Position numbers and translations under genes: made by a program
Notes under the pieces: generated by a model
What the model was told of the DNA's origin: nothing
The model's input: the letters and a program-made list of their open reading frames with translations, nothing else
Databases searched by the model: none
Origin: Escherichia phage vB_EcoM_SP1
Direction: 5' to 3' (one strand)
Sequence record: MT682709.1
Length of the DNA stretch: 64,000 nt
Shown: one piece after another, positions 39,664 to 40,430 of the stretch
Layout: each line of letters starts with the position of its first letter
Numbering within the stretch: the stretch's first letter is position 1

Positions 39664-40152
39664 ATGAATATATTTGAAATGTTACGTATAGATGAAGGTC
39701 TTAGACTTAAAATCTATAAAGACACCGAAGGTTATTACACTATTGGCATTGGACATTTGCTTACTAAAAGTCCATCACTAAGTGTTGCTAAATCTGAATT
39801 AGATAAAGCTATTGGGCGTAATTGCAATGGTGTAATTACAAAAGATGAGGCTGAAAAACTCTTTAATCAGGATGTTGATGCTGCTGTTCGCGGAATTCTG
39901 AGAAATGCTAAATTAAAACCAGTTTATGATTCTCTTGATGCTGTTCGCCGCTGTGCATTGATTAACATGGTCTTCCAAATGGGAGAAACCGGCGTAGCAG
40001 GATTTACTAATTCTTTACGCATGCTTCAACAAAAACGCTGGGATGAAGCAGCAGTAAATCTAGCCCAATCTAAATGGTATCGTCAGACACCTAATCGCGC
40101 GAAACGCGTAATCTCAACATTTAAAACAGGAACTTGGAAAGCGTATATATGA
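39664..40152 (+). CDS. e: endolysin (T4-type lysozyme)
   Basis: 162 aa, almost identical to recalled T4 lysozyme ([38 protein letters not shown]...). Confidence 0.97.
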
Positions 40153-40430
40153 AAACATATAGTGAATTTTTATCAGAATCTATTCTTAACGAAGCTACTG
40201 ACACATTTGCAACTAAGCTAGGTGCAGCTTTGGTTGAAGCTGAAAGTCTATTAGCACGTATTTCTGAACTTGCTAGTAAGATAGATACTCGCAAATTTGA
40301 ACGTACCAGCGATATCGTTAAGCTTGAAGCCTTGTTGCGTATGTGCGATAAACCAGAAGAAATCGCTAAGAACGGCTCGCTAATGAAACAACGTCTTGAA
40401 AAATATATCTCAGGCGCTTCAGAAAAATAG
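40149..40430 (+). CDS. internal-protein-like ORF with capsid-targeting sequence ([11 protein letters not shown])
   Basis: ATG overlaps the lysozyme stop (ATGA); the track's TTG start discarded. Confidence 0.6.

Follow-up and report, generated by a model that had tools for sequence, protein, structure and literature searches.

A candidate packaged-protein gene that begins within the lysozyme stop codon of a T4-like phage, and its plausible translational coupling to gene e

When one phage gene opens within the stop codon of another, does the joint govern when the second protein is made, and to what use would that protein be put? The question is raised by a 93-codon open reading frame (ORF93) directly behind the lysozyme gene e of Escherichia phage vB_EcoM_SP1, whose product carries at its N-terminus what looks like a capsid targeting sequence (CTS). 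The stretch of DNA analysed here, ‘the window’, comprises 64,000 nucleotides of record MT682709.1, and by nucleotide comparison it is that of a T4-like phage (Tequatrovirus): hundreds of Tequatrovirus genomes match the region at 93-98% identity, the best of the long matches being to Escherichia phage 132 (96.4% across 24 kb). As originally predicted, positions 40149-40152 read ATGA, such that the TGA at 40150-40152 closes e and the ATG at 40149-40151 opens ORF93. The surrounding genes and control elements are collected in Table 1.

Table 1. Genes and control elements on either side of the e/ORF93 joint, in window positions
Feature	Position	Strand	Evidence or remark
nudE	39172-39627	+	
e leader hairpin	39627-39669	+	Sequesters e Shine-Dalgarno and AUG on upstream-started transcripts
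Two T4-type late promoters 5' of e, TATAAATA	39630-39637, 39643-39650	+	Exact consensus matches
e, endolysin, 162 aa, C-terminus ...TGTWKAYI-stop	39664-40152	+	Pfam PF00959 Phage_lysozyme, E 2e-13; T4 e alignment
Mosaic e 3' end	40020-40148	+	VR20-like (Gaprivervirus), contiguous with ip5; recombination joint within e
ORF93, Ip5-family internal head protein, 93 aa	40149-40430, TAG 40428-40430	+	phrog_3499
ORF93 propeptide region	40149-40193	+	Predicted prohead-protease sites LSE10/S and LNE15/A
Early-type promoter in hairpin before denV	40432-40485	+	GTTTAC 40432-40437; TG-n-TACTAT 40453-40461
denV, endonuclease V, pyrimidine-dimer glycosylase	40489-40902	+	PF03013, E 3e-14; phrog_1183, E 2e-62
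ORF86, second CTS gene, MKMYQEFIAE	40909-41169	+	phrog_2667 ‘internal head protein’, E 8e-21
Early-type promoter before ipIII	41174-41202	+	10/12 consensus, extended -10 TG; Lutter promoter annotated there
ipIII homologue, 192 aa	41233-41811	+	phrog_5341, E 2.5e-117; ‘internal protein III’ in W143
ipII homologue, 100 aa	41853-42155	+	phrog_7857, E 4.5e-55; ‘internal protein II’ in W143
vs.8-like gene	from 42380	+	

ORF93 is an already annotated gene of a known family, arranged in a way that is usual for T4-like phages, and the expectation of a CTS-bearing gene behind e was correct in that this is a genuine internal-protein gene, as judged by its PHROG match, its RefSeq annotation and its pattern of substitution (see below). 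The Ip5 family, to which it belongs, has been known since the 1990s. A profile search aligns residues 1-87 of the 93 with PHROG 3499, ‘internal head protein’, at an E-value of 1.2e-46. By tblastn, an Ip5-type protein is encoded in 496 phage records; 238 of these are at least 80% identical to ORF93, and the remaining 258 hold a paralogue at about 48% identity that is annotated as Ip5 in T2 and RB51. In all 29 of the matches listed (89-100% identity), the match to ORF93 overlaps the annotation of the upstream gene, mostly named lysozyme or endolysin. RefSeq names the homologue ‘internal head protein’ in Lutter and in the close relative EcNP1, and ‘ip5’ in vB_EcoM_VR20 (VR20), and Ip5 names are also seen in T6, T2, RB15, RB70 and RB51. 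Beyond this circle little was retrieved: an exhaustive HMMER search of 1.84 billion proteins placed the family in four representative clusters and found nothing further, and a word-indexed homologue search with ORF93 returned near-identical proteins only. From the four clusters we take the Ip5 family to be confined to T-even-type phages, with no remote relatives to inform function. A Pfam search gave no match for ORF93 or ORF86; the AlphaFold (AF2) model of ORF93 is all-helical and moderately confident (pLDDT 72.7, pTM 0.35), and Foldseek found no match to that model in the PDB under E = 7.

Comparison with named phages serves to place the gene more exactly. Ip5 of VR20 is 89% identical to ORF93 and likewise sits between e and denV, but its overlap with e is 14 nt rather than 4 nt. 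Ip5 of RB51 (52% identity) is of the same length class and has the same CTS. The T2/RB51-type genes lie elsewhere, behind 57B at the ipI locus, and have an early-type promoter of their own and flanking repeated promoter cassettes; the RB51 type has a better Shine-Dalgarno sequence than ORF93. Comparison with the e-denV region of T4, suggested in the original prediction as a check, turned up no T4 counterpart: the order there is e-ipIII-ipII-denV-vs.8, without ORF93 and ORF86, against e-ip5-denV-ORF86-ipIII-ipII in the window. ORF93 shares with the T4 internal proteins IPI, IPII and IPIII a 10-residue N-terminal CTS with Y4, F7 and (I/L)8-x-E10, and a place in the e-denV internal-protein cluster, the IPII and IPIII homologues lying 0.8-1.4 kb downstream; it differs from them in having no sequence similarity past the CTS and in that its mature product is near neutral (pI about 6.3), IPII and IPIII being basic (pI 9.7).

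In T4, the CTS of IPIII consists of the first 10 residues, with positions 4 and 7 needed for targeting and with processing dependent on position 8 (L/I) and E10, and these 10 residues alone are enough to package foreign proteins (PMC9026906). All of the mutationally defined residues are present at the N-terminus of ORF93 (Y4, F7, L8 and E10). Seven instances of a CTS-like pattern are found in the window (at 32343, 32676, 35242, 40149, 40909, 41233 and 41853); all are on the + strand, each opening an ORF of 86-192 aa and having (L/I)xE at residues 8-10, as against no occurrence in 100 shuffles of the sequence. ORF93 belongs, along with ORF86, ipIII and ipII, to the variable cluster of internal-protein genes lying between e and vs.8. 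As to processing, a second (L/I)xE at residues 13-15 is kept in the Ip5 proteins of both VR20 and RB51, whereas the site at residues 8-10 is altered in each (V10 in VR20, A8 in RB51); since the 13-15 site is the better conserved in the family, the propeptide may be 15 residues long. We suggest, with T4 as the guide, that the ORF93 product would enter the scaffolding core of the prohead via its CTS, lose its N-terminus to the gp21 protease, which would cut after E10 and/or E15, and then be injected along with the phage DNA.

The second CTS gene that had been proposed to follow denV is also there: ORF86 starts at 40909, 6 nt past the denV stop codon (40900-40902), which is incorporated in its Shine-Dalgarno sequence (TAAGGA), and its homologue in EcNP1 is annotated as an internal head protein. 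The Lutter annotation (3313-3568) splits the homologue into two short ORFs that overlap, in what looks like a frameshift, and in some relatives this CTS gene would appear to be in decay. Cassette variation is seen in W143 as well, where an extra 104-aa ORF (3635-3949), absent from the window, lies between the ORF86 homologue and ipIII. Between ipIII and ipII of the window, at 41814-41831, there is a perfect 7-bp GC-rich hairpin (AGGCCTAAGTATAGGCCT), terminator-like on both strands. The three CTS ORFs furthest upstream, at 32343-32615 (90 aa), 32676-32984 (102 aa) and 35242-35805 (187 aa), begin with MKTFKEFINEA (twice) or MKTYAEFLTEA and flank a tRNA cluster, forming a second, ipI-type locus. 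That cluster, at 33623-34450, has 10 tRNA genes (Gln, Leu, Gly, Pro, Ser, Thr, Met/Ile-type CAT, Tyr, Asn and Arg), whereas T4 has eight, and the set is accordingly of the RB51 type.

How, then, might ORF93 be expressed? The two late promoters that had been claimed at 39630-39650 stand up to inspection, both being matched by TATAAATA within a leader that, promoters and hairpin included, is base-for-base the same as that of T4, where two late promoters have been mapped (PMC3014915). The predicted fold of the hairpin has an energy of -16.2 kcal/mol (z -4.45), with none of 200 shuffles equally stable. In T4, early read-through transcripts fold this hairpin (McPheeters et al. 1986, via PMC3014915), and e is translated well only from late-promoter transcripts, which start inside it (PMC3014915). 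From 33.3 to 47.6 kb of the + strand, the pair before e are the only upstream occurrences of TATAAATA; one more, a putative promoter at 41915-41922, lies within the ipII coding sequence. The e/ORF93 junction itself has no intergenic space, promoter or terminator. A sigma-70 match across it, at 40134-40163 (TTGGAA...TATAGT), was rejected as a promoter, as it agrees with the consensus at 9 of 12 positions only and the 15 sites given by the scan are in line with the 14.5 expected from shuffled sequence.

The Shine-Dalgarno pairing of ORF93, at -3.3 kcal/mol, is the weakest among the seven CTS genes (the others range from -4.2 to -6.7), and may be compared with -11.1 for e and -9.3 kcal/mol for denV; in EcNP1 the ORF93 homologue has the 19th weakest pairing of 74 genes. 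A GGA persists 8 nt upstream of the start. We envisage that ORF93 shares its mRNA with e and, its own ribosome-binding site being weak, that most of its translation would probably come from ribosomes finishing e, by termination-reinitiation. On early read-through transcripts the leader hairpin would block e, leaving open only those from the two late promoters; with this gate, and a reliance on ribosomes from e, ORF93 would inherit late-only synthesis, matching the time of prohead assembly. What distinguishes the window from the T4 picture of e control, which it otherwise shares down to the leader sequence, is the CTS gene starting inside the end of e, and through this start the control of e could extend to a second cistron.

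This account presupposes that ORF93 is a gene and that its product goes where its N-terminus would send it, and each has its alternative. Both an antisense ORF of 114 aa (40121-40465) and a TTG start at 40134 are present in a mechanical list of ORFs, so either might be the real gene or the real start, or ORF93 might be a chance frame, but we give these readings almost no credence: ORF93 differs from VR20 Ip5 by 26 synonymous and 14 non-synonymous changes, and the resulting dN/dS of 0.11 in the + frame marks it as a real gene under purifying selection and disposes of the antisense ORF. The profile HMM match, moreover, spans the full length of ORF93, which is conserved in about 240 genomes rather than lost or frameshifted in most close relatives, and in the relatives with a 14-nt overlap it is the ATG that is kept, the TTG being out of frame. 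The antisense ORF was rejected on conservation and on the dN/dS of the + frame, and the TTG on a frame not conserved in relatives; the conservation pattern already refutes the chance-frame, antisense and TTG-start readings alike. It is, to our minds, very improbable that the CTS is vestigial and the product neither packaged nor injected, acting instead inside the cell that produces it. Such a role would fit with the lack of direct virion evidence in the literature, in which we found no virion proteomics report for the ORF93 product (searches on ‘Ip5’ returned nothing, internal proteins are absent from the main text of a time-resolved omics paper on T4, and a paper on a Yersinia T4-like phage makes no statement on them), as well as with the near-neutral charge of the mature part and the V, not E, at position 10 of VR20 Ip5. 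However, all Ip5 family members seen keep Y4 and F7, the residues for targeting, (L/I)xE is conserved at residues 13-15, the CTS genes are clustered together, and a CTS of 10 residues suffices to package foreign proteins in T4 (PMC9026906).

A more serious contender, although one we still regard as unlikely, is independent translation, with the overlap reflecting genome compaction and ORF93 initiating by itself, at its AU-rich start, on early read-through and late transcripts alike, without need for translation of e. In the RefSeq annotation of EcNP1, same-strand neighbours overlap by exactly 4 nt in 14 of 73 pairs (19%) and overlap at all in 30 of 73 (41%), and the geometry of the e/ORF93 joint alone thus says little. 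Overlapping starts in EcNP1 also have weaker Shine-Dalgarno sequences overall (mean -5.1 against -6.9 kcal/mol). RNA structure masking the ORF93 start was sought by folding and is absent (z +0.79); the region is AU-rich and unstructured, which would permit independent initiation, including on early read-through transcripts, and promoters annotated in Lutter upstream of an e.2-like gene and of nudE would supply such RNA. The Ip5 paralogues and ipIII, furthermore, carry early-type promoters. Set against this are the standing of the ORF93 Shine-Dalgarno as the weakest among the CTS genes, the fact that in some relatives with a 14-nt overlap the Trp codon TGG is the sole remaining Shine-Dalgarno-like element, and the way in which, in different genera, a CTS start stays embedded in the tail of e despite exchange of the cargo gene.

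On balance, we regard coupling to e as more likely than independent initiation; the mechanism is a sensible one that agrees with what is known of e control, and is plausible but unproven. The claim of translational coupling therefore stands in part: ORF93 has no promoter of its own, sits directly behind e, has the weakest Shine-Dalgarno of the CTS genes and is joined to e in a conserved manner, but coupling is still read from geometry, and 4-nt overlaps are routine. The tight join plausibly, though not provably, limits ORF93 synthesis to late infection. The further claim, that late expression is needed for packaging, was overstated: the early-type promoters of RB51/T2-type Ip5 genes and of ipIII in the window mean that late-only synthesis is no requirement for the family or for packaging. 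All in all, we think it fairly probable that in ORF93 this T4-like phage has a functional internal head protein gene of the Ip5 family, with late coupling and packaging as proposed here.

The late unit would seem to end with ORF93. The hairpin at 40438-40485 pairs with the Shine-Dalgarno sequence of denV (GGAGG, 40479-40483) and has a predicted fold of -18.5 kcal/mol (z -3.0), and at the position equivalent to the early-type promoter before denV a promoter is annotated in phage Lutter. The -10 element of this promoter is in the loop, in a logic like that of the e leader, and the hairpin ought to tie translation of denV to the gene's own promoter, whose transcripts start inside the loop. On late transcripts from the e promoters, we suggest, e and ORF93 would be translated and denV probably not, its ribosome site being masked, which would make of e-ORF93 a two-gene late translation unit. 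The element resembles the PeSL (promoter-early stem-loop) cassettes of the hyperplastic regions of T4-type genomes, for which a shuffling model has been put forward (PMC2839356), in placing an early promoter in a stem-loop right after the ORF93 stop codon and before denV, and repeated promoter cassettes likewise flank Ip5 in RB51. It departs from them in that ORF93 is so flanked on its 3' side only, the 5' boundary being e coding sequence or the CTS.

We collected e homologues from IMG/VR and compared their 3' ends, and among 23 T-even-type e genes (at least 68% identity) the gene ends inside a CTS start in 16. Four are of the window type, with a 4-nt overlap, the e end GCGTATATATGA (...TWKAYI-stop) and always an Ip5-like gene next; GCGTATATATGA and the 4-nt overlap are invariant in every window-type relative examined. 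In another 12 the overlap is 14 nt and the e end is GCATATGAAAACNTATAA (...AYENL-stop), such that the nucleotides for Y-E-N-L-stop spell M-K-T-Y when read in another frame, and here the CTS protein that comes next differs between phages: Ip5-like, IPII-like (100 aa) and IPIII-like (198 aa) proteins, others of 132, 115, 97-98 and 96 aa, and also a 91-aa type, at least seven different kinds in one slot. The remaining seven have no overlap and are either of the T4 type (...AYKNL-stop) or have e followed directly by the denV promoter. In the T4 type there is an early promoter and a distance of 86-88 nt to the first CTS gene (87 nt for T4 ipIII, with an early-type promoter motif in the gap); T2 is arranged likewise, with ipIV as the gene concerned. 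In more distant homologues of e the end is ...AY(N)-stop and a CTS gene is absent. Which residues come after ...AY is thus a matter of what has been joined downstream.

The T4 end itself (NC_000866, 66500-66520 region) reads TATAAAAATCTATAA as against TATGAAAACCTATAA, with two differences, one of which turns an ATG into ATA; in codons, the tail of T4 lysozyme is TAT AAA AAT CTA TAA against the TAT GAA AAC CTA TAA of the 12 phages. By these two positions, the loss of the ATG included, the YKNL tail of T4 looks like a decayed overlap, and, to judge from the alignment, its K-N-L may be the relic of an overlapping CTS start. The window form of the joint, for its part, has two extra nucleotides (TA) before the ATG relative to the 14-nt form. 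We put forward tentatively, and as something short of probable, that the end of e serves T-even-type phages as a fixed docking joint for packaged-protein genes, with TATGAAAACNTATAA, the last codons of e (Y-E-N-L-stop), doubling as the M-K-T-Y start and recombination within the CTS swapping the cargo. At least seven unrelated proteins were seen in the slot, and any occupant would come under the late-only gate of the e hairpin; the ATGA of the window would be a derived form with its two additional nucleotides, and the disordered K-N-L tail of T4 lysozyme would be the fossil of a lost CTS start (ATG to ATA). The conserved joint between e stop and CTS start is, as description, a modest new point.

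The e gene of the window is itself mosaic. In 60-nt windows its identity to T4 e is 0.92-1.0 over the first 360 nt or so and then 0.75-0.83, and the last 60 nt are 93% identical to VR20 and 80% to T4. The joint thus leaves the 5' three quarters of e T4-like and the final 60-100 nt VR20-like. With this VR20-like 3' end adjoining ip5, the ip5 cassette has evidently moved together with the end of e. Elsewhere, in IMGVR_UViG_2974741249_000001, the e frame matches residues 1-144 only and is followed by sequence of the 132-aa-type internal-protein gene, which may reflect a deletion fusing e to a cargo gene. In T2 (LC348380, 3441-4496) e is followed by ipIV, with no denV, and the CDS given for nudE extends across e (4002-4973), apparently through an error of annotation.

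Of all the proteins of a phage, the internal proteins are the first to arrive in the host cytoplasm. Those of T4 (Ip1, Ip2 and Ip3) are injected, and each inhibits a distinct GmrSD-type type IV restriction enzyme (PMC12373910; PMC9391042), while ip4-10, when tested against further GmrSD variants, gave no reproducible interaction (PMC12373910). By analogy with Ip1-3, we speculate that the ORF93 product would most likely disarm a host defence, for example a GmrSD-type restriction enzyme; Pfam and Foldseek searches gave no sequence or fold similarity linking it to GmrSD inhibitors, and an anti-defence role is proposed from the T4 precedent. With all three T4 proteins inhibiting enzymes of this type, each variant gene becomes a candidate determinant of host range.

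Finally, the way in which ORF93 is expressed has little bearing on its annotation, but it is relevant to the engineering of CTS-tagged cargo and to an understanding of how cargo genes are exchanged; the joint between the e stop and the CTS start, for its part, adds a little to the picture of mosaicism in T-even genomes, and offers a neat account of the variable C-terminal tail in T4-type lysozymes.
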